DNA of 43,867 nt from an uncultured Methanosarcinaceae archaeon (GTDB lineage Archaea; Halobacteriota; Methanosarcinia; Methanosarcinales; Methanosarcinaceae). A program made the translations under genes and the position numbers. Of this stretch, positions 4,878-43,421 are shown piece after piece. The stretch covers positions 1 through 43,867 of the forward strand of contig CAVSHT010000017.1 of assembly GCA_963727895.1 (NCBI GenBank), in the 5' to 3' direction. How positions within the stretch are numbered: the first letter of the stretch is position 1; each line of letters begins with the position of its first letter. Under the pieces are notes generated by a model, which was not told the DNA's origin, did not search any database, and saw only the letters and a program-made list of their open reading frames with translations.

Positions 4878-5293
4878 ACTAAACTCATTATTAATGAGCT
4901 CATCTCAAAAACCATTTTTTTCAATTATTAGAATTATTTCCATGATTAAAAATTCTATTAGTTACATAAAGTACGAAATATAAACTAATAAAATTTGAGT
5001 TTTTATGTATAATCAATCATGAATTCCTCTTTTTTAAAAAATAAATGTTCAATCATCATCTGAAGTTTAGTTTCAAGCAATACTATTATATATATCCTAG
5101 ACATATCAAACACTAGATAGTTGCATCTGAAATTAATTAATATATCATTTTATCTTATACAAGGCTATTACAATTTCGAAATGTGATTATATACAAAGAA
5201 AAAGCCTCTATCACCAAGGCATTAAATCTGTTTCATATACAACTATTTTTTTAAATGTATTTAATGTCAAAACAAGACACCTAGTTCAGAAAT

Positions 5294-5789
5294 ATGAAGG
5301 ATAAAAATATGGAAAATCTAAGAGAAATTGACCCAAGAGAAATATTAGGCCCAATTGCCCAAATATACCGTAGCAATCTGGTATTCATGACAAGGGGACT
5401 CGAAGCTTATAGGATCAGAAGCGGACAATTTGAGTTTTTAATTGTTTTGTATCATAAAGATGGAGTATCTCAGGAGACTCTTGCAAAACTTCTGAAAGTT
5501 AGCAAAGCAACAAGTGCCAGAGCGATCCAGAATCTGGAAAAAGAAGGTTATGTTTACAGGGAAAGAGACGAAAGTGACCTTCGAGCTTATAGGGTTTACC
5601 TAACTGAAAAAGGGAAGAAAATGAGAAATATTATTTTTAAAAAAAATGACTGCTTTTATAGATATTCTCTTTTCAGACTTTACCCTTGAAGAAATAGAAA
5701 TTTTCAGGCTACTCATCCATAAAGCTTCGATTAAACTTTTTGAGCCTGAATTCAAGCCTCCATCTAATGGACAAGATCATCTGAAGTAA
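5294..5789 (+). pseudogene. MarR-family regulator with a +1 frameshift in an A8 run (5639-5646)
   Basis: wHTH SQETLAKLLKVSKATSARAIQNLEKEGYV..DLRAYRVYLTEKG. Removing one A restores KKMTAFIDILFSDFTLEEIEIFRLLIHK to TAA 5789, just before the MATE RBS. Confidence 0.85.
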
Positions 5790-5808
5790 AAAATAAGGAG
5801 GTGAAAAT

Positions 5809-7215
5809 ATGGACAAGAAAAGTGCATTTCTCGGTGAAGAGAAAATAAGCAAGCTTTTAGTTAAGCTTTCAACTCCTGTAATCATTGGAATGCTAGCACA
5901 AGCTCTCTATAATATTATAGATACTTTATTCGTAGGAAGGGCCTACGGAGCAGAGAGTGTAGATGCCATAGGTGGGCTTTCTATAGCTTTTCCAATTCAG
6001 ATGATGGTTACAGCGGTGGGAATTTTTCTTGGGACAGGAGGTGCTTCAATCATCTCACGTGCTCTAGGGGCACAAAATAACGAAAAAGCTGAAAAAGTTC
6101 TTGGAAATCTTTTCACTCTGAATCTCATCATTGGTGTACTTATTGCTATTTTCTGTCTTCATTATCTTGACTCGATTTTAAGGATTTTTGGGGCAACTGC
6201 TGGAGTACTACCTTATGCTAGAGAATATCTAAAAATTATACTCACAGGAGGAATTGTCTTTGTATATGGAGTTTCAATTCAGAATGTTGTTAGGTCTCAA
6301 GGAAATACTCGCCTTGCCATGAATGCGATGCTACTAGCAGTTGGCCTCAATGTTATTCTTGCCCCTATTTTTGTCTTTGGCTTCAGGATGGGCGTGCAGG
6401 GTACTGCACTTGCAACTTTGCTTGCACAGGGAACAGCATCAGTCTGGCTTCTACTATACTGCATAAAAGGAAAAGGAGCTGTAAAATTCAGATCTGAAAC
6501 TTTAAAACTAGACCTAAAAATTGTAAAAGAAATTACAACTGTAGGTGCTGCATCTTTTGTGATGGACAGTGCTATGAGTATCATGATGATTTTTGTATAC
6601 AACGCACTTGCAGTTTATGGTGGAGACGCTTCAATTGCAGTTTTTGGTACCGTAATGAAGATTAATGCCTTTATTTTCATGACCATCATGGGCATGGGCT
6701 TTGGTTTACAACCAATAGTTGGGTTTAACTACGGAGCAAAGAAATATGAAAGGATAGTTGAAGCTGTAAAAACAACTCTGGCTGCAGCAACAATTTTTGG
6801 AATTTTTGGATTGGCTATTATTTATCTCTTAAGAGTACAACTTCTTGGACTATTTAGTGCAGATCCTGAATACCTAGCAATTGGAAAAGAAGCAACGTTG
6901 ATTATGATCTTGGGAACTCCTCTAACAGGTTTGAATATAATCACTTCAACCTTGTTCCAGGCTTTAGGAAAAGCCAAACCCGCTTTTATTCTTTCCTTGA
7001 GCAGGCAAATTATTTTTTTAATTCCTCTTGTTATTATTCTTCCTCGTTTGTACGGCCTTGCCGGTATTTGGGCAGCTTTTCCTATAGCGGACTCTCTAGC
7101 ATTTCTGCTTTCTGGATTTCTTCTTTTTAGATTATACAGAATTTTCAAAGAGTATAAAGGCACTTCAAAAATAGGTATAGGATCAGAAACTGCAGACAAA
7201 ATTTACCCAATATAA
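5809..7215 (+). CDS. MATE-family efflux transporter (MepA-like)
   Basis: About 12 TM segments, YNIIDTLFVG and GLQPIVGFNYGAK motifs, AAGGAGGTGA RBS, downstream of marR. Confidence 0.93.
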   Translation: MDKKSAFLGEEKISKLLVKLSTPVIIGMLAQALYNIIDTLFVGRAYGAESVDAIGGLSIAFPIQMMVTAVGIFLGTGGASIISRALGAQNNEKAEKVLGNLFTLNLIIGVLIAIFCLHYLDSILRIFGATAGVLPYAREYLKIILTGGIVFVYGVSIQNVVRSQGNTRLAMNAMLLAVGLNVILAPIFVFGFRMGVQGTALATLLAQGTASVWLLLYCIKGKGAVKFRSETLKLDLKIVKEITTVGAASFVMDSAMSIMMIFVYNALAVYGGDASIAVFGTVMKINAFIFMTIMGMGFGLQPIVGFNYGAKKYERIVEAVKTTLAAATIFGIFGLAIIYLLRVQLLGLFSADPEYLAIGKEATLIMILGTPLTGLNIITSTLFQALGKAKPAFILSLSRQIIFLIPLVIILPRLYGLAGIWAAFPIADSLAFLLSGFLLFRLYRIFKEYKGTSKIGIGSETADKIYPI

Positions 7216-7366
7216 TTTTATCAGCAAAAGAGATAATTTTACGAAATATTTAAAAATATTTTGTAAGTAGTCAAAACAATCTCTACAACAAAAAGACGTG
7301 AGGTACCTGTAGGAGGTTTCGTTGTAAAAAAATTATGGAAATAATTCATTGAAATAGTACAATTTA

Positions 7367-8221
7367 GGTTCCGTTGCAAAAAATATCTGCTAAGGATATA
7401 ATAAAATAAAAGGGAAGTAAAGGATAGTGATATGCTATCTAATTCCTTTAAATGGAGCACTTTGTAGGTGAAATTATCTTATTGAATGTTAGATGGTACT
7501 TAAAATATCCATTAAGTTACCGAAATTTAGAGGAAATGATGGCAGAGAGGGGAGTAGAAGTTGATCACAGTACTATCATGAGATGGGTACATCAATACTC
7601 TCCTGAAATCGAAAAGAAGGTAAGAAGGCATTTAAGACCAACTAATAACTCTTGGAGAGTTGATGAAACTTACATCAGAGTTAAAAGTAAATGGAAATAT
7701 TTTTACCGAGCAGTTGACTCAAATGGAGATACAATTGATTTCATGTTAAGTGCAAAACGAGATCAAAAAGCAGCAAAACGTTTCTTTAAGAAAGCTTTGA
7801 ATTCTAATCATAATCAAATTCCAAGAGTAATCACAGTTGATAAAAATCCAGCTTATCCACCTGCTATAGATAAACTGAAAAATGATAAAATACTACCTAT
7901 AAACGTAGGCATTCGACAAATCAAGTATTTAAATAACATTATAGAACAAGATCATAGATCCATTAAACGAATAGTTAATCCAATGTTAGGATTTCAGTCT
8001 TTTAACACAGCTATTAAGACTTTAAAAGGAATTGAAGCTATGAATATGATTAAAAAAGGACAAATCAAAAACCTAAATTACTCTGGCTTTAATGAAGCTA
8101 AATATATTAATCAATTATTTGGAATAGTTCTATAATATTGACACATCTTTTTGAATATTTGTACTTTTGTTTATTGATTATGGATTTACGTGCTGATTCT
8201 GAGATTTTTTACAACGGAACC
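7367..8221 (+). mobile_element. IS6-family insertion sequence, 855 bp
   Basis: TIRs GGTTCCGTTGCAAAAAA / TTTTTTACAACGGAACC. No TSD seen. Confidence 0.95.
7432..8135 (+). CDS. IS6 DDE transposase with a probable 1-nt deletion after codon 8; ORF 7452-8135 lacks the native N-terminus
   Basis: WRVDETY, ITVDKN and NNIIEQDHR motifs. ATG at 7432 gives MLSNSFKW and then leaves frame before HFVGE. Confidence 0.88.
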
Positions 8222-29238: not shown

Positions 29239-32200
29239 TCATAATACAACTAAATGTAACTGATCTGTTCCTATGCACAGAAGTTCAGCCTGTTTGAGAA
29301 TATTATTAATAGCAAGTTTTTGTTTATCTGGAGGGTATCCGTATTTATTCAGCAATCGCTTTACGTTGATCCTTATTTTTGCCTGTATATTTTTCCTGAT
29401 AGTCCAGTCAACGCCTGCATTTTGCCGAATAATCTTAACAAGCTCAGCTGCAATAAATCTTAATGTTTCATTGCCCAGTACTTCCACGGCGCTTTCGTTA
29501 TCAACAAGAGCATCATAAAAAGCAATTTCTTCATCACTCAGGCCCAGTCCTTCGCCTCTTTTGTCGGCCTCACTTATCTTCTTTGCCAGATCAAGAAGTT
29601 CTTCTATAACCTGTACAGTGTCAATGCCTCGATTCTTATACTCGTTTATTGCTCGCTCAAGCATTTCGGCAAAAGATTTACCCTGAATCAAATTCCTCTG
29701 AGATCTGATCCTTATCTCGTCGTAAAGTAACTTTTTCAGTACTTCATAAGCAAGATTCTTTTGTGGCAGGTCCCGGACTTCAGCAAGGAAGTCTTCGGAA
29801 AGGATAGAGATATCCGGTTTATTTATTCTGACTACATCAAAGATATCAATTATCTCCTCTGTTGCAATTGATTTTGAAACAAGCTCTTTTATTGCCGAGT
29901 TCATTTCATACTTTGATTTTGCAGGTCTCCTTTTCAGTTTCACAAGAATTGACCTTACAGCCTGGAAATATGCAAGCTCATCCCTGATCCGATCAGCCTC
30001 TGGATGCGGTACTGAAAGAGCAAAGGCTTTGGAAAGCTCGGTTACATGCTGAATGAGACGCTTCTTTTCCTGGGTTATTTCATCTTCGGTATGGCCCTGT
30101 GAGAAAATAAAATCGGCTCCTTCCCTTACGATTCCAAGTTTTTCCTTTGGAGAAGCGGAGAAGATTTTCATATAGTCAAAGCCATAGAAAAGGTCCTGCA
30201 ATATCTCATACTTTTCGAGCATTAATGCAACAGCTTCATCTTTATATTCCGCAGGGGTACCTCTACCTCCACTTCGAGTGTAATTTACCATAGCATATTT
30301 CAGATCGTAGAGAATGTCCACGTAATCAACAATAAGCCCTCCGGGCTTATCTCTGAAAACACGGTTTACGCGAGCAATTGCCTGCATGAGGTTGTGCCCC
30401 TGAAGCCATTTCAGAAAATACATGGTATGTAGGCAAGGAGCATCAAAGCCGGTAAGCCACATATCACAGACTATAACAAGCTTTAGAGGATCATTGGGGT
30501 CCTGCATTCTATCACGAATCTTCATCCTGCGGCTTTTGTTCCTGATATGTAGCTGCAAGGTTTCATCATCGGCTGCACTACCGGTCATGATTACTTTTAT
30601 CTGGCCTTTCAGATCATCTTCTGAATGCCATTCTGGGCGAAGGGCTATGATTTCATTGTATAGATCAACACAGATCTGCCTGGTCATACAGACAATCATG
30701 CCTTTTCTCAAAATGGAAGATGATATCATCTGCAAGCTTTCTCAGGTTATCCTTACTTCCAACCACGACTTCAAGCCGTGACCAACGAGACTTGAATTTT
30801 TCTGCCTCGTATGGGTCCCAATCTCCGGTTATTTTCGAGAAATCAGAATCCAGTGTTTCTCTTGCTTCTTTGGCCAAATCAATCTTTGATAGGCGGCTTT
30901 CATATGAAACAGGTACTGTAACCCTATCTTTTACAGCCTGTTCAATGTCATAAATATCAATATAATCCCCAAAGACCGCAGGCGTGCTCCTATCATCGAG
31001 TTCAATAGGCGTGCCGGTAAATCCAATAAAAGATGCATTCGGGAGAGCATCTCTCATATATCTTGCAAAGCCATAGAATATCTCTGCAACCTTTTCACCT
31101 TCAACCTCCCTTTCTCGGATCTTTGCATCAAAGCCGTACTGGCTGCGGTGGGCTTCGTCAGCAATTACAACAATATTTCTCCTTTCGGAAAGGACCGGGA
31201 ACTGGTCTTCTTCGTCTTCGGGAGAAAATTTCTGGATCGTTGTAAAGACAATCCCACCCAAAGCCACAGAGAGAAGTTCTCTAAGGTGGGCTCTGGTTTC
31301 AGCCTGAACAGGCTGTTGGCGAAGGATTTCGCTGCATCGAGCAAAGTTATCAAAGAGCTGTCCATCAAGGTCGTTTCTGTCCGTAAGCACTACAATGATT
31401 GGGTTGTCGAGTTCAAGTGCTAGTTTTCCCGCATAAAAGACCATTGAAAGGCTTTTCCCTGAACCCTGGGTATGCCAGACAACCCCGCATTTCCTGTCCC
31501 CGTCTGGCATACAGGCAAGTTTAGTTTTCTCTACAGCCTTGTTAACTGCATGGTACTGGTGATAGCGAGCAAGCTTCTTGATAACCTTTCCGTGGTCATC
31601 TTCAAAAACGATAAAGTGCCTGATGAGGTCAAGAAGAATTTCTGGCTTGCACATCCCTCTAAGCAGTACCTTCATAGGTGGAACTTTAAAATCTGCAACT
31701 TTTTCCCCGTCAATCGTTTTCCAGGGTACGAACCACTCACTGTTCGAGGTAAGTGTTCCTGCCATTGCATCCTGCCCATCACTTATCAGCAAGAAAGCAT
31801 TATACCGGAAAAGCCTGGGAATATCTTTTTTGTAAGTCTGAAACTGACTATAGGCGTCCCAGAGAATCTCATCGTCTTCAAAACTGGAATCTTCATCCGG
31901 CCTCTTTAGCTCAATAACTACAAGCGGCAGCCTGTTAATAATAAGTATAATATCTGGCCTTCTGTTATTTCCATCTTCTATAATGGTAAACTGGTTGACC
32001 GCAAGGAATTCATTTTCTTCAGGTTCCGTAAAGTCAAAAAGCCAGACTTTGTCATAAACAGTTTCCCCATCCTGACCCTGATATTCTACATCAACCCCGT
32101 TTACCAGCATATTGTGAAAAGAACGGTTATTGTGCACAAGATCCTGGCTTTCTTCCCGAAGCACCTTTTTTATTGCTTCTTCCCTTGCTTCTGCCGGAAT

Positions 32201-32386
32201 TTCGGGGTTCAGCTTGTCAACTGCAGCCCGAAGTCGGCGTGGTAGAATAACTGTCCCGAAATCATTCCTTTCTGCTCCATCCGTTTCCGGTGCAATGTCC
32301 GGGCCATAAAGGTAGTCGTAATCGAGCTCTGAAAGGATTTCAAGAGCTGCTTCTTCAACTTCGGATTTGGGAATGAACGCTGGAAT
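29239..32386 (-). pseudogene. hsdR: Type I restriction subunit R, inactivated
   Basis: RPDI..IELK, HTQGSGKS, DEAH, FTGTP, MWLTGFD and QAIARVNR motifs. The expected start codon after the AGGAG RBS reads ATT (32386). Frameshifting deletion at about 30700. Confidence 0.93.
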
Positions 32387-32689
32387 AGTTATTTCTCCTT
32401 TCTTTTTTGTTTGTTGTGTCTTTTTGTCTGTTTCCGTATCTGTTTTATCTATTTTTGCCTCTATAAGGGCAGGTTTCCGTTCAAAAGAGAGTTTCAGCCA
32501 TTAAAACAAACATCGAAAAATTATAAGTGTGTATCCCAGTAAATTTATTTAAATGTAGCTATTTGTTACCGAATTTTATTTTGCCGGATAGACTGTTAAG
32601 GAACAACCCTGCCATGAGGTAAACAAATTGATTACTTCAATGCAAATGTATAAATATCCTAATATGTGACATTATTCTGGGGTAATATT

Positions 32690-32989
32690 ATGGCGGGAAC
32701 ATTGAGACTATCACCAGTTATTAGTGTATATCCTGACGACGAATACGAAAACCTTGAAATTGAGGTAATTCTTCCGGGTGTGGAAAAGAAAAACGTTTCT
32801 TTCAAGATCACCAGTGACAGCTTTTATGTAAGCGGTAAAAAAGAAGGAGTTACCTATCTGGACAGTTATTCAATCGGCTGCCCGGTAGAACCGGAAAAAG
32901 CCGTTGCTAAGTACTCAAACGGCGTGCTTAAGGTCACTGTACCTTATCAAGCACCTTTAGAGAAATTAGTGGATGTAACAATAGAGTAA
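32690..32989 (+). CDS. Hsp20/alpha-crystallin small heat-shock protein
   Basis: EVILPGVEKKNV and AKYSNGVLKVTVP motifs; TATAAATA upstream. Confidence 0.9.
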   Translation: MAGTLRLSPVISVYPDDEYENLEIEVILPGVEKKNVSFKITSDSFYVSGKKEGVTYLDSYSIGCPVEPEKAVAKYSNGVLKVTVPYQAPLEKLVDVTIE

Positions 32990-33496
32990 AGCGGCAATTG
33001 CATGGCAAACTTCTCTAAAGGGAAGGCAATAAAAGAAATTGGGAATCCAGAGCTTGCAAAAATTTTGGATTATCACTATTTTTCATTTATAGCTCTTAAT
33101 TCCCCTGCTTTTTATAACTTTTCGGGATCAACCTTATTCACCGTCCTGTGCCGTTTTTTACGCTCGACGAAGGAAAGCGGCCATTCCTTGAGAATATTAG
33201 TGTACAAAATTAAAGAACGAAGAACAAGTTTAGAGTTTTTATCATTTAAGAACAAAGATTTGTACTTAGACAAAATTATTTGATATAAAAATCAATATCT
33301 TATTAAAAAATCAACATTGAGTGAAGAAAAGTTAATACTGAACAAAGCTGTATGTTAGTTACTATGTATGGAAATCGGATGTACTTTATCCTTTGCTTTA
33401 ATTGAAACAATAGTCATAAAAATAATTGGTGAAATAACAATGAAAAGCAAAATAATCTTATTTGCATCATTTGCATCATGCGGAATGGCCTTTGGC

Positions 33497-33597
33497 GTGG
33501 AGGGTGGTCCCTCTCCGATGTTGCAAGTGGCAATGGATGAGTATCTCTGGCTTCCATGTCAATGGACCAGATGAGGGTTCGAATCCCTCACTCCACA
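33497..33597 (+). ncRNA. tRNA-like structured element (non-canonical)
   Basis: Perfect T-arm GAGGG-TTCGAAT-CCCTC, acceptor-like GTGGAG/CTCCAC + A, and a TCTGG/CCAGA stem enclosing a TCCAT-GTCA-ATGGA hairpin. D region enlarged. Confidence 0.6.
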
Positions 33598-33682
33598 CAA
33601 ATTCAATTTTTTAGCTTATTTTTGTATAATCTGCAATCTTGGAATGAAAGTTTGTTGTAAACTAAATTTAATTATTGCTTTT

Positions 33683-34405
33683 CTAATTAAAATACACTGC
33701 TTGATCTAGTTTTTTCATCAGAAAAGAAATGAAACTTAGTATATCAAGACATTCTTCTTTTGTAATTGGCCAGAGATGTGCAGGCTCATGAGCAGTTGGA
33801 TTCCTTATAGCTCTCATAAGGCCAGCAGACAAAAAAGCTATACCTTCCTGAACGTTTTTATCTGTACTTGAAACACATTTTGTCACTTTTAAAGTTCCTC
33901 TATCTGGATTCCATGCCTGAAGCATCAGATATTGGCCTTCCTTTATACTCTGAGATTTGTTCTGAACTAGCTGATGATAAATTTTAGCTGCTTCAAAAAC
34001 TGCATGGAAGTAATGACCATCAAAATATAACTTACTACAATTTTTCATAATTTCTGGATGGAAATTTCTGCTAGTAAATTCACGTGATTGTTTTCTTATA
34101 TCCGAGATACCAGATTTAATTAGAATGTCATCTATGTGGTTCTTATCTTCATAAGGAACAATTAAATCTAAAAAACTACACAATAATTTATTTCGCTCAT
34201 CAATAATTAATTTCTGTTTTGCTAAGGTCAATATCCAGTCGTGGATTCTTTGTGCTCTTAAAGAAGTAATGGAGCTATTAGGAAAATCTTCGCAATTAAA
34301 TGAGAAAACAGATTTTGCAGCTCTGTCTATTTCATTGATAGGAGTAGAATATTTTAGACTGTCACCGATCTGTATCGCAATCATCTTATAAGTTTGAGAA
34401 TCCAC
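33683..34405 (-). CDS. TIGR02391 (Ymh) family protein with a HEPN-like RxxxxH motif
   Basis: FHPEI..GHYFHAVFEAAK..IRNPTAHEP..LDILSFIS. GTG 34405 follows an AAGGAG RBS. Confidence 0.85.
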   Translation of the reverse strand: MDSQTYKMIAIQIGDSLKYSTPINEIDRAAKSVFSFNCEDFPNSSITSLRAQRIHDWILTLAKQKLIIDERNKLLCSFLDLIVPYEDKNHIDDILIKSGISDIRKQSREFTSRNFHPEIMKNCSKLYFDGHYFHAVFEAAKIYHQLVQNKSQSIKEGQYLMLQAWNPDRGTLKVTKCVSSTDKNVQEGIAFLSAGLMRAIRNPTAHEPAHLWPITKEECLDILSFISFLMKKLDQAVYFN

Positions 34406-34421
34406 AATTGAAATCTCCTTA

Positions 34422-34610
34422 TTAAATCTGAACACGAACTCTTCCTGACATGAGTTTTGGAAGAAGAGTGTCGCGAAGTTGGGATAACAATCTATTTTGT
34501 TTTTGTCTTTCTAGCCTTTCATTATGGAGTGATAAAGCCACTTTATTCCACGCGGTAAGAATTGAATCATTTGGAACAACTATTCGAAAGCTTCCCAAAG
34601 ACCCGGTACG
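34422..34610 (-). pseudogene. hsdS: C-terminal remnant of the type I specificity subunit
   Basis: Manual translation ...IVVPNDSILTAWNKVALSLHNERLERQKQNRLLSQLRDTLLPKLMSGRVRVQI*. LRDTLLPKLMSG is the conserved HsdS end. Confidence 0.88.
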
Positions 34611-34639
34611 GTGAATACGGTTTTGTACGGGTCAGAACT

Positions 34640-36010
34640 TCATTTCTCCAGAATTTCCCAATGGCCACCTTTAGCAGGGCCTACCCTTTTGAGAATTTTC
34701 TCATCCTTCAAGTTTTTAATTTGCCATTCAACACCTTTGTCAGTAATATCCAGTTTTTCTGCCAGTTCTTTTGTAGTTATAGAAGGATTTTCTTTAATCA
34801 GGAAAATGATTTTCTCCCTAGTTTTCTCCCTAGTTTTCTCCCTAGTTTTCTCCTTAGTTGTTTCCCCAGTTGCTTCCTTTTCCCCAACTTTTTCTTCTGC
34901 TTCCATCTGTTTTCTCTTAAATGTGACAATAAACTGAGTCCCGACTTCTTTAAAATCGGTTTCGGGCTCTTGTGAAAGTATAAGGCTGATGCCTCTACCC
35001 CATTTCTCGATCAGGTGAATTTCATGCAGGGTTTCGGCGAGCAGTTCGTTTCTTCGCTCAGAAACCATTTCGGATTTGATCTGATCGATTGTAAGACCAC
35101 CGTAAAGCCTGCCTTTGTTCCGGATTTCCACCCAGTTTTTGAAAACAGCCACGTTTACAGAATCGTACTCATAGTAGTCACGGTGGCAAAAAGCATTTAC
35201 AACAGCTTCCCTGATAGCTTCTTCATTTATTTCCGGGACATCAACCCTTTTGAGGCCTTCTAGCCTCATGCCAATATGAATATTTTTAAGGATGTATTTC
35301 TGGGCTTCCTCAATCAGATAGAATAAATCGCCTGTAAACTCCTGCATATCTATAATATAGGAAGTGTCGTCTGTAGCAAAAACCGCGCACCTGAGCTTTG
35401 CATTCGGGAAAAAGGTTTCAGGAGATTTGCCAAAAAGAATCACTGCAGCATTGGTTAATTTTCCGTCCTGAAAGAGTTTCAATTTTCTCAGGGAATTCTC
35501 AAAACCTGTATACTCTTTTCCTGCTGCTTTTACAAAAACCTGCACTTTTTCTTCACTGAGGTCTGCTAAAGTTGCATCCTTGCAGATTGCAGTATCCCAT
35601 CTAAGCTGGGATTTGTTTTTCCTGAGAATCATATTCTCAAGTTCTTTTCTGCTCAGGAGCTTGTCTTCATCAGAAGTACGGATGTAAGCCCTACCGTAGG
35701 CAAAATAGGGAATATCATTACCCTGAAATTCAATTTCTATGCAGGTCTTTCCCTCCAGAGTAACCTGCCTAATATTTGGATAAATTCTGGGCTCTATATA
35801 TGAAGAAACAGCTTGAGAAATACTTCTTAAAGTGTCATCCCCAATATCCTGGCCAATAACAGTGCCGTCATCTTTTATCCCGAAATACAGTTTTCCTTCC
35901 TGATGCTTGTTGAGAATCGAAACTATGGAAATAAGTCCTGGCTTCAATTGGGCAGTAGACTTCTTCAGTTCCAGAATCTCGGATTCTTTCAATTGGGAAT
36001 CAGAGTTCAT
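34640..36010 (-). CDS. Schlafen/AlbA_2 domain + HATPase_c_4-like + C-terminal HTH protein
   Basis: [39 protein letters not shown], wHTH ending [10 protein letters not shown]. 12-bp TREK linker repeat. Overlaps the hsdM stop. Confidence 0.88.
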
Positions 36011-37553
36011 ACCCGAACCCTGCCAGATTCTCTCTAATTTTCGTCTCCAGCTCCTCTGATTTTCTGAACTGCTCCGAAAGTTCTGCAGTCAATTTTCCCA
36101 TTTTCTCTTTAAATTCTTCATCATCGTCTTCGGTCTCTTCAAAACCTACATAACGACCAGGAGTAAGTATATAATCGTGTTTCTTAATTTCGTCAAGAGT
36201 TGCAGCCTTACAGAAGCCAGGGACATCTTCATATTCCCCGTTCTCAATCTTTTCTCCATGCCAGGCGTGGTAGGTGTCGGCAATCTTCTGGATTTCTTCA
36301 TCAGTAAGTTCGCGGTGGGTACGATCTCGCAAAACTCCCATATTCCGGGTATCAATAAAGAGAACTTCACCGCGCCTGTCGTGGAAACCACTGTTTTGCT
36401 TGTCGCGGACAATGAACCATAAGCAGGCTGGAATTCCAGTATTGTAGAAAAGCTGGCCTGGAAGGGCAATCATACAGTCTACAAGATCTTTTTCAATTAT
36501 ATTTTTCCGGATCTCACCTTCACCAGAGGTGTTTGAGGACATGGAACCGTTAGCAAGGACAAAGCCTGCAATTCCAGTTGGAGAAAGGTGGTGGATATAG
36601 TGTTGAACCCAGGCGAAGTTGGCATTGCCTTTTGGCGGGACTCCGAATTTCCAGCGGGCATCTTCGGTAAGAAGTTCACTTTTCCAGTCTGAATCGTTAA
36701 AAGGAGGATTTGAAAGAATAAAATCGGCTTTCAGGTCTTTGTGCAGGTCATTATGGAAAAAATCACCCCATTTGATGCCATCGTTGTCTATGCCCCGGAT
36801 AGCAAGGTTCATTTTGCAGAGTCTCCAGGTAGTCTGGTTTGATTCCTGGCCAAAAATGGAGAGATTTTCAAGACGGCCTTCATGAGCTTCAAGGAATTTC
36901 TCGCTCTGGACAAACATCCCACCTGAACCACAGCAGGGGTCATAAATTCGGCCGCGATAGGGCTCAATCATCTCAACTAGAACTCGGACTATACTTCTTG
37001 GGGTATAGAACTGACCGCCACGCTTGCCCTCTGCGTCTGCAAAACTGCCGAGGAAGTACTCATAAACTCGGCCAAGCACGTCTTTACTCCGGCTTTCTTT
37101 ATCTCCAAGGCCGATTGTGCCTACAAGGTCAATCAACTCACCCAGGCGCTGCTTGTCAAGTCCTTCCCTTGCATAGTTCTTTGGGAGCACTCCTTTCAGG
37201 GTATTATTATCCCGCTCAATTGAAGTCATAGCTTCGTCTACAATTTTCCCTATAGTAGGCTGCTTTGCACTTCTCTCCAGATGGTTCCAACGGGCTTCAG
37301 GAGGTACCCAGAATACATTCTCTGCTAGATATTCTTCTGGATCTTCTGGGTCGGCGCCTTCCTCTATTTCCAACAAGAGTTTTTCGTGCATCTCTTCAAA
37401 AGCGTCCGAGATGTATTTCAGGAAAACGAGACCGAGTACTACATGTTTATACTCTGCTGCGTCCATATTGTTTCGGAGTTTGTCCGCTGCCTGCCAGAGT
37501 TTTTCTTCAAAACCTAGATTTGCACCATTTGAGCCTGCTGTATTTTTTGCCAT
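36000..37553 (-). CDS. hsdM: Type I R-M methyltransferase subunit (m6A)
   Basis: [23 protein letters not shown] and NPPF motifs; intact 517 aa. Confidence 0.96.
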
Positions 37554-40501: not shown

Positions 40502-43421
40502 TTGTCAAGCATACAGCTTACGGTACCTTCGTACTCATTCAACCGGGAAAACACTGATACAAGAACAAAAACTGCATCACGGTATTATCAAAGCTTCGGC
40601 ACTGGAAATTATCTGTTACACAAAACCACTAGAGCAGGTGCAACAACGTCTTTAATTACCGAATCCATGAACAGAGGCGAAAAGTTTCTTGCAATGGTTC
40701 CAACGAATAAGATAGCGGATGATACAATCATAAACGATGCAAAAGAGTTCTGTGATCGAGAAAATACTGAAATAATCCACATCCCTTCAAACCACAAGTG
40801 TATCCATAATCAGGAGCTATGTAAAGAATATCCAGATTTAAACGCGTTGCCTGTTCTCCCGATAGCTGAGAAATGTGATAAATGCGAATACTACGATAAA
40901 TGTGAAGTTACGGCTATATCCAGGAAACCAAATGCTGATGGATACGTCTTAACCTATTCAAAACTAGCCGCGCTCCTGATGGCAAATAACCGGCCCAATT
41001 CAACTGCTCATAAAATATTACAGACGATTGCCAAATCGTGTAATATAATTCTGGATGAAGTTCATGAAATGCAGTATGGAAAACGTAATGATGTTATCGT
41101 ATACGATAGTAAATTCCAGCGGCGATTAAGGTTAGATCGATTTAATACTCTTTCTCAAGAATTCCCATACATCATAAGTATAATTGAAAAAATGAGCATT
41201 ATAGATCGAAACGAAGGGGTAAACAGCGCAATTCATGAAGTATTAGGAGGTGCAGAAGGAGAAAATTATTGGAAACATAAATTAAATCGAACCGTTATTA
41301 ACCCCTGCTTCAAATATGGGAATGTTGAAGAAAAAGGAAAATTTACCATTGGGGTTTTCAGTGAGATTATAGAACTTACAAAGCAACTTAACAAGTACAA
41401 TTTGGCAATAAAAGATGTCCTCGAACTGTACAAAATGCTATAGATAGTCACAAGTGAAGTCATATCTGTAAATGCAATAAAAGATCACGGAATCATAAAT
41501 ATAAATTTGACTGCCATTGATTACAATCTCCAAAACATGATAAATTCATTCGTAATGAGTATGCAAAGTGAGGATAAACGAATAATTTTAACGTCCGCTA
41601 CAATTTGCAGCTACGATTACAGCAAGCTTTTTTTGGGGCATGTCAAGCCGGTTAGTATCATGTTTGGACCAGGTGGAGATCCACTTAACACTAATTCCAA
41701 GATGACTATCCTAGCAGATAATAAAAAGTATAACGCAGTTGGAGACCGGTCACGACACAAAATGAAAGGGGAGATCATAAGCAGGATACTTGAGATTCTG
41801 CATTGCTACGGCGATCAGGACTGTATAATCATAGCCCTTGGTATCCCAGAAGCTGAAAGTTTAGAATCAGATTTAAGTAACGCTGGACATCCTCATTCAG
41901 TTACATATTACAAAGCTTCCGAAATGATGGGAGTTTCAGCAAAACAGCGAGTTATGATAGCTATAGGGCTTGCTAACAAACCTTCGAACGCTTTTGATGC
42001 AATTTCAATTGATGCAAAAAACTCAAGAAGGCTACTAGAAGAGTCCGTACACTGTGACACATGGCAAGCATGGAGTCGTATAAAAGATCCGGAAGGGAAA
42101 CAACCTTCTTTAGTTTTTGCTCTAGGTTGCTGCGTCGAGGATTGCAGGAACGTAGTTAAATGGGGATTTAACAGGACTGTAGAAATTGAAGAAACACGGA
42201 ATGATGCAAAAAAGAAAGTAAACGTTATCTGTGAAAAAAGAAAGATAACAGAACCCTCTGTTCTCAAATGCAAAAGTTTTGACGAAATGCTAGAAGAAGC
42301 TTCCATTAGACAACTTCCTAAACAAGTGCGTTCAAAACCTTCCAAACCGTCTATATATAATAATATAATAGACGGTTTTAGCATTTCAAAACGCACTTGT
42401 TTAGACAGTTCGGTTAAATTGCTGAATTTAATTATTAACAGAAATGATGTTTATGGGCAACAGCAAAAGGATGGAACTTATAGGTTAGTTGAAGTTCCTA
42501 TAACAGAAACAACTATAAGAGAACACCTAAAGGGAAATATCACAATTGGAACTTACCACTTAAACAAGGAAAATAAAGTTAAAACTCTCTGTTTTGATAT
42601 TGATTCTCATGCTCCTAAAAATGCTATCGAATCAGAAGAAGATATTCTAAAAAGGGATAATGCTGCAGAACAACGAAAGGATATTCTTTCCAATTTTCTT
42701 TCTCATCATGGAATTCCTTACACTTTAGAAGCGTCTGGAAGTCCACATTCGTATCATTTTTGGATATTTCTAGAGCCTGTAGATGCTGAGAAAGCCTACG
42801 AGTTAGGGAATTGGATAAGAGAATCTCTTAAATGGAAGGAGGCAGACATTGAGGTATTCCCAAAGCAAAAAAGGGTTGATAGAAAAGGGTATGGTAATTT
42901 AATCAAACTTCCATTTGCAACACATCAAAAACATAAAACTCTTTCCAAGATTCTAGTAAATGGTACTTTTGTAAAAGACTTTGATTCTTTAGAAGTTGGG
43001 GTTTTAGACATTTATTCATTCGTTCCTCCTGTAGCAAAGAAAGTAGCTACGAAGAAAAAACTTAGTAATCCTAACCCTATTATTAGAGTCAATGGCAAAG
43101 TCCAGCGTAAGCCTAGAAATTGCATTCTGGAAGCTACTAAAAAACAATTGACTGGTCATGTCGGTAATCAGCTTAGAGTTGCAATCGTAAGGGAATTGCA
43201 TCTTTCTGGAATGCCCGAAAAAGCTATTATTGAGACATTCAGCGTGCAGGAAGACTTTGATAGAGGAATAACAAGTTATTATGTTCACCAGGTTCTTAGA
43301 AGAGATTTCATCATCTGTTTTGTGCGCAACTCTCCGTGAACAATGCGGAGATTTGTTAGGCTGCGATAATTGCCTATATTTCAAAACCAGTTTAAATTTA
43401 GCAACGGCTGAGGCAGAATAA
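40502..43421 (+). pseudogene. Helicase-like + archaeo-eukaryotic primase fusion (putative Rep) with an in-frame TAG (41441-41443) and a 3' frameshift (~43309)
   Basis: TTRAGATTS, a Cys cluster and ILDEVH, then AEP motifs CFDID, SGSPHSYH and EVFPKQ..GNLIKLP. ORFs 40502 and 41507 share a frame with only one TAG between them. A shifted frame ends CATLREQCGDLLGCDNC...TAA 43421. Confidence 0.8.

Follow-up and report, generated by a model that had tools for sequence, protein, structure and literature searches.

Why does a sequence with the acceptor and T-arm half of a tRNA, and no anticodon loop, overlap the end of an open reading frame in a methanogen genome, and what could such an arrangement do? 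The window considered here is the whole 43,867-nucleotide stretch analysed, from an uncultured Methanosarcinaceae archaeon (GCA_963727895.1, contig CAVSHT010000017.1). The initial annotation described a T arm, an acceptor pairing, two unusual inner hairpins and a competing hairpin at 33497–33597, and all of these features are present in the sequence. They lie within a larger unit, with the following parts.

33355–33720, + strand: cassette shared with the closest relative, G026 (84% identity by blastn), with different genes beyond it
33366–33390, + strand: upstream repeat U, a diverged copy of the first ~25–30 nt of the tRNA-like domain, holding the ATG at 33368
33368–33574, + strand: 68-aa ORF (stop codon included) for a small hydrophobic protein, starting inside U
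33428–33442, + strand: internal GGTGA and ATG, taken by the initial annotation as ribosome-binding site and start, and a possible second initiation site; Met in 6/7 aligned members of the family
33497–33503, + strand: acceptor 5′ strand GTGGAGG (P), which is also Val-Glu-Gly, codons 44–46 of the ORF
33511–33541, + strand: hairpin A in the MFE structure, at the D-arm position, oversized, with core GTTGC/GCAAT and including TTGC-AAGTG-GCAA
33546–33571, + strand: hairpin B, at the anticodon-arm position, 10 bp, in which TCTGG/CCAGA encloses a CT bulge and TCCAT-GTCA-ATGGA; GTCA loop, no anticodon loop
33573–33589, + strand: T arm GAGGG-TTCGAAT-CCCTC, read directly from the sequence
33590–33597, + strand: non-coding acceptor 3′ strand, ACTCCAC followed by a discriminator-position A; complementary to P at 6/7 pairs
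33607–33612 and 33619–33623, + strand: two oligo-T runs, a likely archaeal terminator from their sequence and from an RNA-library contig that ends at 33604

Folded in isolation, 33497–33598 has as its minimum free energy (MFE) structure exactly this four-way junction (−40.8 kcal/mol by RNAfold), with a z score of −2.28 and 4 of 200 shuffled sequences folding as well; the minus strand of the region is weaker, with a z score of −1.56. The local competing hairpin, GAGGG-TGGT-CCCTC, can also form. Together, the T arm and 3′ strand make a 25-mer that occurs once in the window, with 0 occurrences expected in 100 shuffles. The proposal of a tRNA mimic lacking an anticodon loop is supported. ARAGORN in its default mode calls no gene in the window, Rfam returns no match at gathering thresholds, and at E ≤ 10 the tRNA clan gives only a T-arm match of 10.5 bits. 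Set beside a canonical tRNA, the element has the T arm with its TTCRAAT loop and an acceptor with 6/7 pairs, and in place of a 7-nt anticodon loop on a 5-bp stem it has 10 bp and a GTCA tetraloop. The Rfam matches at E ≤ 10 are all confined to the T arm, among them a Streptococcus sRNA (24.7 bits, E 0.12) and the tmRNA model (10.5 bits against a threshold of 47), and the tmRNA mode of ARAGORN finds none. The acceptor, the T arm and one inner hairpin are also kept in relatives, and the initial interpretation is partly right in that the element is a non-decoding tRNA mimic coupled to an ORF.

The ORF differs from the one first assigned to it. A 44-codon frame was initially proposed, and its GGTGA (33428–33432), ATG (33440) and TGA (33572–33574, abutting the T arm) are all present, but the conserved ORF is longer: in the ORF listing the frame of the 33440 ATG is open further 5′ and runs as 33368–33574, starting ~130 nt 5′ of the fold. 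A similar division applies to the suggestion of a leader-peptide-coupled switch, in which the coupling to an ORF stands but the 44-codon leader does not, since a protein frame of 49–68 aa is conserved. The start codon within U is ATG or GTG across members. Local alignment of U with P is significant in G026 (2/500 shuffles) and G027 (1/500) and not significant in the window genome (G000) or G197 by the same 500-shuffle test; G220 has lost the U-bearing 5′ part. From U to P the frame is stop-free in all six members that have U, an outcome with a chance of 2–6% per lineage by shuffling (product over five lineages, 4.5e-8), and the other two frames contain 1–8 stops, except for one frame of G327 with none. 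GTG GAG of the 5′ strand reads Val-Glu in all members, in a frame open from ~130 nt upstream. Products are 68 aa in the window and 49–58 aa in 6/7 relatives, and every ORF terminates within hairpin A or beyond, that is, inside or at the edge of the tRNA-like fold.

The products carry an N-terminal hydrophobic segment, with a Kyte-Doolittle 19-residue maximum of 1.87 for the 68-aa product of the window and of at least 1.6 in 11 of 17 sequences scored, and the 68-aa protein is probably membrane-associated. A manual count over codons 1–24 gives five synonymous and five residue changes between G000 and G026, the latter mostly among Ile, Leu, Val and Phe. No Pfam or NCBIfam family matches the small protein. 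A word-index protein search with the 44-aa ORF gave one match, and a search of 1.84 billion cluster representatives with a profile of seven products retrieved 12 small ORFs (46–80 aa, apart from an outlier of 295 aa). A six-frame protein profile gave nine matches in the 392 genomes of the class, eight of them real members, all eight with the fold; a match in G278 (E 0.008, within a 224-aa ORF) was set aside.

The known family thus has eight members, in about five lineages, among these 392 genomes (G000, G026, G197, G027, G327, G043, G220 and G218). G026 is 96% identical to the window over the element and 70–84% in the flanks by BLAST. Across a core at 33462–33604, 135 of 143 positions are identical between the two, compared with 84/102 and 65/93 in the flanks (94% versus 70–82%; Fisher p 4e-6). 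A covariance model built from this pair led to two diverged copies, in G197 and G027; a second model (R2), applied to 151 genomes of the class, led to G327 and otherwise to true tRNAs only. A relaxed RNA pattern added G043 and G220, for 7 of the 392 genomes and none in the reversed control, and G218, missed by that pattern, was recovered by the protein profile. The family pattern has no match in viral contigs, and blastn of the cassette gives none in plasmids or phages. An exact 22-mer of the element recurs in three records among genome contigs (the same element, a bacterial tRNA-His and a bacterial tmRNA-like 3′ end) and in a phage tRNA-Arg among viral contigs; we read the matches outside the element as chance-level hits to tRNA-type ends. 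A contig of a bacterial metagenome-assembled genome contains, at about 1380–1530 of the locus, the exact 25-nt T arm plus 3′ strand of the window; by eye it looks like a tmRNA 3′ end, ARAGORN in tRNA mode finds none there, and we judge the match to be chance. Among metagenome contigs a 23-mer finds only a second copy of a known relative, and many sequencing runs contain only about 5 of 46 sampled words; the comparison drew on X1, X3, X4 and X16, and no conclusion about habitat is drawn from it.

Conservation is concentrated in the tRNA-like half. The 5′ strand GTGGAGG is identical in 7/8 members (GTGGGGG in G327), (A/C)CTCCAC lies directly 3′ of the T stem in all eight, with the sequences diverging right past it, and a canonical T loop, TTC(G/A)AAT, is kept in every member other than G027, where it is TTAAACT. 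Between the shared strands and the T arm, the members are largely different. RNAalifold, run on a plain, unfitted MAFFT alignment of the eight members, keeps the acceptor as 6 bp that are invariant save for one A-U to G·U change, finds two compensatory changes in the T stem (AU:4/GC:4 at one pair, GC:7/CG:1 at another) and keeps a 5-bp core of hairpin A in which one pair is GC:4, GU:3 and AU:1. Hairpin B cannot be aligned; its length, sequence and loop differ in every lineage. The initial annotation had called for a check by homologues and covariation; BLASTN and a search of the class yielded relatives with compensatory changes in the T stem and hairpin A. Two further alignments (A4 and A5), fitted to their own covariance model, show 7 and 10 pairs changed on both sides, with inner-arm counts that we discount because two near-identical sequences were aligned differently. 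Close variants (G026 and the metagenome contigs X3, X4 and X16) carry five stem substitutions, of which four are C>T or A>G transitions that keep a G·U pair on the + strand only. The fifth, G33535A, breaks a pair and is found only in the RNA-library contig; G33499T, in a near-identical DNA contig, is synonymous, breaks G3-C70 and, at a depth of 4.7, may be an error. For the isolated element, the MFE structure comprises the acceptor, two hairpins and the T arm in 4/4 of the first members, and in three further members tested, forcing the acceptor to form costs no more than 1 kcal/mol relative to the MFE.

Members are rare and patchily distributed, the cassette is mobile, and its copies are often found in variable regions. 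The window copy is flanked by a convergent ymh gene (33683–34435) and, on its other side, by two + strand ORFs, one Hsp20-like and one of 93 aa, in a type I restriction-modification (R-M) locus with hsdM, an AlbA_2/Schlafen-like ATPase and hsdR as two overlapping ORFs (30665–32164 and 29239–30735). Elsewhere, its neighbours are NrdD and DUF488 (G197), a KAP NTPase, an Abi_alpha protein and a HicB-like gene (G027), a HicB-like gene, MetK and RpiA (G043) or unknown ORFs (G327), and beside the G026 copy only a ~20-codon C-terminal remnant of Ymh is found. Comparison with G196 shows the cassette of G197 to be an insertion of 623 nt, of which 438 nt are unique and 185 nt repeat the 3′ end of DUF488 at 90% identity. 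Because neighbours differ between genomes, the R-M link looks incidental, and the R-M setting is one landing site among several. The tie to this locus and its predicted RNases, as first drawn, is not supported: only the G000/G026 lineage adjoins a Ymh/HEPN gene or remnant.

Several features of the surrounding DNA merit description in their own right. The R-M locus (29239–37553) looks decayed or remodelled; no HsdS domain was found among the window ORFs scanned, and the ATPase (34640–36010), which carries a wHTH domain, sits with the Ymh/HEPN gene between hsdM and hsdR. In G172, 2.6 kb of other DNA occupies the place of the ATPase. The segment 34424–34600, between the ymh start and the ATPase stop, is 84–92% conserved in many congeneric genomes from which both genes are missing, and may be a conserved gene-end remnant or an R-M recombination hot spot. 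At 41507–43339 lies a 610-aa protein with a TOTE conflict-system archaeo-eukaryotic primase domain (1e-26), adjoined by an ORF (40502–41443) with a weak ResIII-like match; this pair may be another defence/conflict system on the contig. Downstream of nrdD in G197 (contig C32, 7336–7549 of locus L054), two repeat units of ~40–60 nt form an inverted pair with 81% identity; with dozens of copies in genomes of that genus (34 matches in G198), they resemble a miniature repeat element.

Evidence bearing on transcription comes from flanking signals and one RNA library. A 230-nt contig from a soil metatranscriptome (run X16), representing a relative with 18 differences, covers 33376–33604, beginning shortly past the proposed start and stopping just short of the first oligo-T run; as an assembled contig without strand or true ends, for which DNA carry-over is possible, it is weak evidence. 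AT-rich boxes 5′ of U, clearest in G043 and G218 (AAACTTATATATA, about 43 nt upstream), could be TATA elements. Another AT-rich box, CTAAATTTAATTATTGC, lies at 33661–33690, 65–90 nt 3′ of the fold. G026 retains this box and the X4 contig does so in part; it could be an antisense-RNA promoter or part of the ymh 3′ end.

We favor, with somewhat better than even confidence, a model in which the locus is a mobile small-protein gene whose mRNA ends in a non-decoding tRNA-like domain that acts in cis. The segment 33355–33720 would be a small accessory gene cassette, and one transcript of ~240 nt would encode the hydrophobic protein. From codon 44 (GTG GAG, 33497) onward, the same RNA would fold with its 3′ untranslated end into the tRNA-like domain, in which an acceptor helix of 6–7 bp stacks on a canonical T arm and two hairpins replace the D and anticodon arms, with no role in decoding. 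With the stop codon placed within the fold or at its edge, a ribosome would have to open hairpin A and the acceptor 5′ strand before it could terminate, so that translation and folding would be mutually exclusive. Recognition by RNase P, tRNase Z and the CCA enzyme depends mainly on the acceptor/T half of a substrate, and the folded domain is predicted to be a substrate of such tRNA end-processing enzymes. RNase P would cut at 33496/33497, 5′ of G33497 and thus inside the ORF. The fold may also protect the 3′ end. Either cutting or protection would limit the amount of small protein made, and cis control of this protein by a built-in tRNA-like domain serves as our working model.

The most serious competitor, which we regard as possible and clearly less probable, is a small-protein gene with an ordinary 3′ hairpin that stabilises or terminates its mRNA; the acceptor pairing would then be a by-product of the Val-Glu-Gly codons, and there would be no functional mimicry. 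In its favor, the protein frame is well supported, no covariation is seen in the acceptor, and the MFE structure of the full-length RNA lacks that helix. In that context (222–225 nt), RNAfold forms the acceptor in 0/4 members, with pair probabilities of 0, and a fold in which it is forced is 7–15 kcal/mol worse. The acceptor pairing is thus not proven, since covariation is lacking and the 5′ strand is also constrained by the Val-Glu codons. A plain hairpin, however, needs neither the TTC(G/A)AAT loop nor an invariant non-coding strand 3′ of the T stem that is complementary to P, yet the former is kept in seven and the latter in all eight members. Moreover, the third-codon letters of GTG GAG are constant at P in 7/8 members, whereas the same codons vary at U (GAA, GAT, GGG). 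Past Val-Glu-Gly/Asp, the protein tails differ, some being in another frame, while nucleotide strings such as AATGTTG persist; this pattern indicates that constraint acts on the protein level until the fold and on the RNA level from the fold onward.

Two further candidates were considered and set aside. The 3′ strand could alternatively pair with U at the start codon, U being poorly conserved in the window itself, and more generally the acceptor strands may find alternative partners in U or in an internal UCCAC; these pairings are too poorly conserved for a switch to be claimed. A 42-codon minus-strand frame that reads WSEGFEPS through the T arm looked attractive because the five G000/G026 differences there are three synonymous and two conservative changes. 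The frame is not kept in G027 and has a different end in G197, and metagenome variants would give L>P, E>N and H>Y.

A further reading, which we think unlikely, is that the cassette is an archaeal type I toxin-like module, in which a membrane-active peptide of ~50–70 aa is checked by the tRNA-like domain of its own mRNA, with an antisense RNA additional or absent. In bacteria, type I toxin mRNAs such as hok, aapA and fst encode small hydrophobic proteins on structured mRNAs. The cassette resembles them in its 50–70-aa hydrophobic protein, its highly structured mRNA of ~240 nt with 5′ and 3′ regions that could pair, and its patchy, mobile distribution, often beside toxin-antitoxin or defence genes. 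By contrast, we know of no tRNA-like domain in a bacterial type I toxin mRNA. Under the toxin-like reading, the domain would fold when ribosomes are absent, tRNA-processing enzymes would cut the mRNA inside the ORF, and the cut would release a stable tRNA-like RNA of ~100 nt. If that were true, peptide expression would be tied to the state of translation and of tRNA processing.

Rather less probable is a decaying relic, either a tRNA pseudogene or the attachment-site scar of an integrating element, without present function. In related genera, tRNA-Leu genes have an identical T arm, the covariance models match class II tRNAs at 20–31 bits with tRNA-Leu as the best-scoring host tRNAs, and the element sits in variable regions with a direct repeat of its own 5′ part, all of which a relic would explain. 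Against it, none of the 58 tRNAs that ARAGORN calls in the host genome (84% complete) matches the 3′ 25 nt within four mismatches. A 22-mer search of 59 genomes of the genus with three mismatches allowed finds, beyond the G000/G026 element, two sites, neither of them an ARAGORN tRNA. The possibility of an att scar, which the initial annotation had named as a way in which its own reading could fail, thus finds no host tRNA end that matches the 3′ part in either set. No integrase domain occurs among the 38 window ORFs scanned, and, with the 25-mer present only once in the window and no near-identical tRNA end, a scar of a host tRNA was rejected. Finally, the core is far better conserved than its flanks, and the architecture is retained, along with compensatory changes, in three families of the class. 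One site deserves mention: in G032 (C1:1128400–1128421), an AT-rich intergenic stretch without a tRNA call contains a degenerate tRNA-end-like string, AGTTCGAATCCCACACTCCGCA, which may be a true att scar, left by a different element.

A free-standing tRNA decoy or RNA antitoxin acting on the neighboring Ymh/HEPN protein and Schlafen/AlbA_2 ATPase, close to what was first suggested, is marginally less probable again. Its appeal lies in the window: the C-terminal domain of Ymh is HEPN-like (PD-Lambda-3_B, 2e-24; Argonaute-associated HEPN model, 2e-11), the convergent ymh gene ends 85 nt from the element, a Ymh remnant accompanies the G026 copy, and element and ymh are absent together (33197–34423) from G172 and G032, in which the hsdR–Hsp20–93-aa arrangement is present. 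Beyond this lineage the association breaks down. Six of the eight members have no ymh nearby (G197, G027, G043, G220, G327 and G218, the last with its neighbors viewed only coarsely), and G028 carries a 79%-identical ymh gene with no match to element model R1. DUF488, the neighbor in G197, is found in 8/10 genomes of that genus and the cassette in G197 only. Moreover, the element is always fused to its own ORF. We favor cis action on the small-protein mRNA over a decoy or regulator of neighboring RNases.

A decoding tRNA with an intron is scarcely credible: ARAGORN in intron mode does call a tRNA-SeC(tca) at 33480–33598 with a 46-nt intron, but the model requires two acceptor mismatches and an intron at position 33/34, is drawn with a 7/5 acceptor/T layout and no long variable arm where 9/4 is expected of archaeal tRNA-Sec, contains on inspection of the sequence and MFE structure no bulge-helix-bulge (no pair of 3-nt bulges 4 bp apart), and is not reproduced in homologues, of which 0/3 are called at the default threshold and, at a lowered threshold, one becomes Tyr, another Gly and the third none. 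With the default ARAGORN and Rfam results, this answers the initial concern that the element might score as an ordinary or intron-containing tRNA. A search for the SepSecS family gave matches in control genomes without Sec as well. Separately, ARAGORN finds eight tRNA-Cys(GCA) genes in the host genome, three of them clustered on contig C18 beside a SepSecS/SepCysS-family match (6547–8014 and 5293–6060), and a tRNA-Val with a 1528-nt ‘intron’ (C5:346760–348372) that looks like an artefact of the intron mode.

How, then, does a small-protein gene ending in a tRNA-like domain compare with systems already described? Its closest known kinds are t-elements and 3′-terminal tRNA-like structures (TLS). 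The t-elements of Haloferax are cut by RNase P and tRNase Z, which sets the ends of neighboring RNAs (PMC4326828, which cites Hoelzle et al. 2008 and 2012). The t-elements of Haloferax volcanii and the present element are both archaeal, tRNA-shaped and non-decoding, and both lie inside longer transcripts; the likeness is one of fold, and cleavage is established for Haloferax and predicted here. Unlike t-elements, the present element overlaps the 3′ end of an ORF, contains its stop codon and travels with the gene as a mobile cassette.

Longer RNAs also end in a tRNA mimic in the case of plant-virus TLS and of MALAT1, whose 3′ terminus is mascRNA; in these the acceptor/T-arm half is conserved. 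Our element is similarly a tRNA mimic at the 3′ end of a partly coding RNA. By contrast, its host is cellular and archaeal and its mRNA is tiny, the Rfam mascRNA model scores it at 13.9 bits against a threshold of 42.5, and we recognised in it no aminoacylation identity elements. Like tmRNA, the cassette joins an acceptor/T-arm tRNA-like domain and a short ORF on one RNA. In the cassette, however, the ORF starts 5′ of the acceptor 5′ strand and runs into that strand instead of lying between the two halves, and the 3:70 pair is G-C, not the G·U of alanine identity.

Known roles of tRNA-like structures include processing signals, as in the Haloferax t-elements, the 3′ ends of viral RNAs and a part in tmRNA. 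Rfam 15 has no family for this domain, and a narrow literature search returned no described cellular small-protein gene with its stop codon inside a conserved tRNA-like domain. In the libraries and literature searched, both the gene-in-fold arrangement and the small-protein family appear undescribed. There is also a practical caution for annotation, as the intron mode of ARAGORN labels the element a tRNA-SeC. More broadly, the poorly charted accessory genome of these archaea, a genetically tractable group of methanogens, gains both a small-protein family and a structured RNA. If RNase P or tRNase Z cut the fold, it would be a compact natural case of gene expression gated by tRNA maturation.
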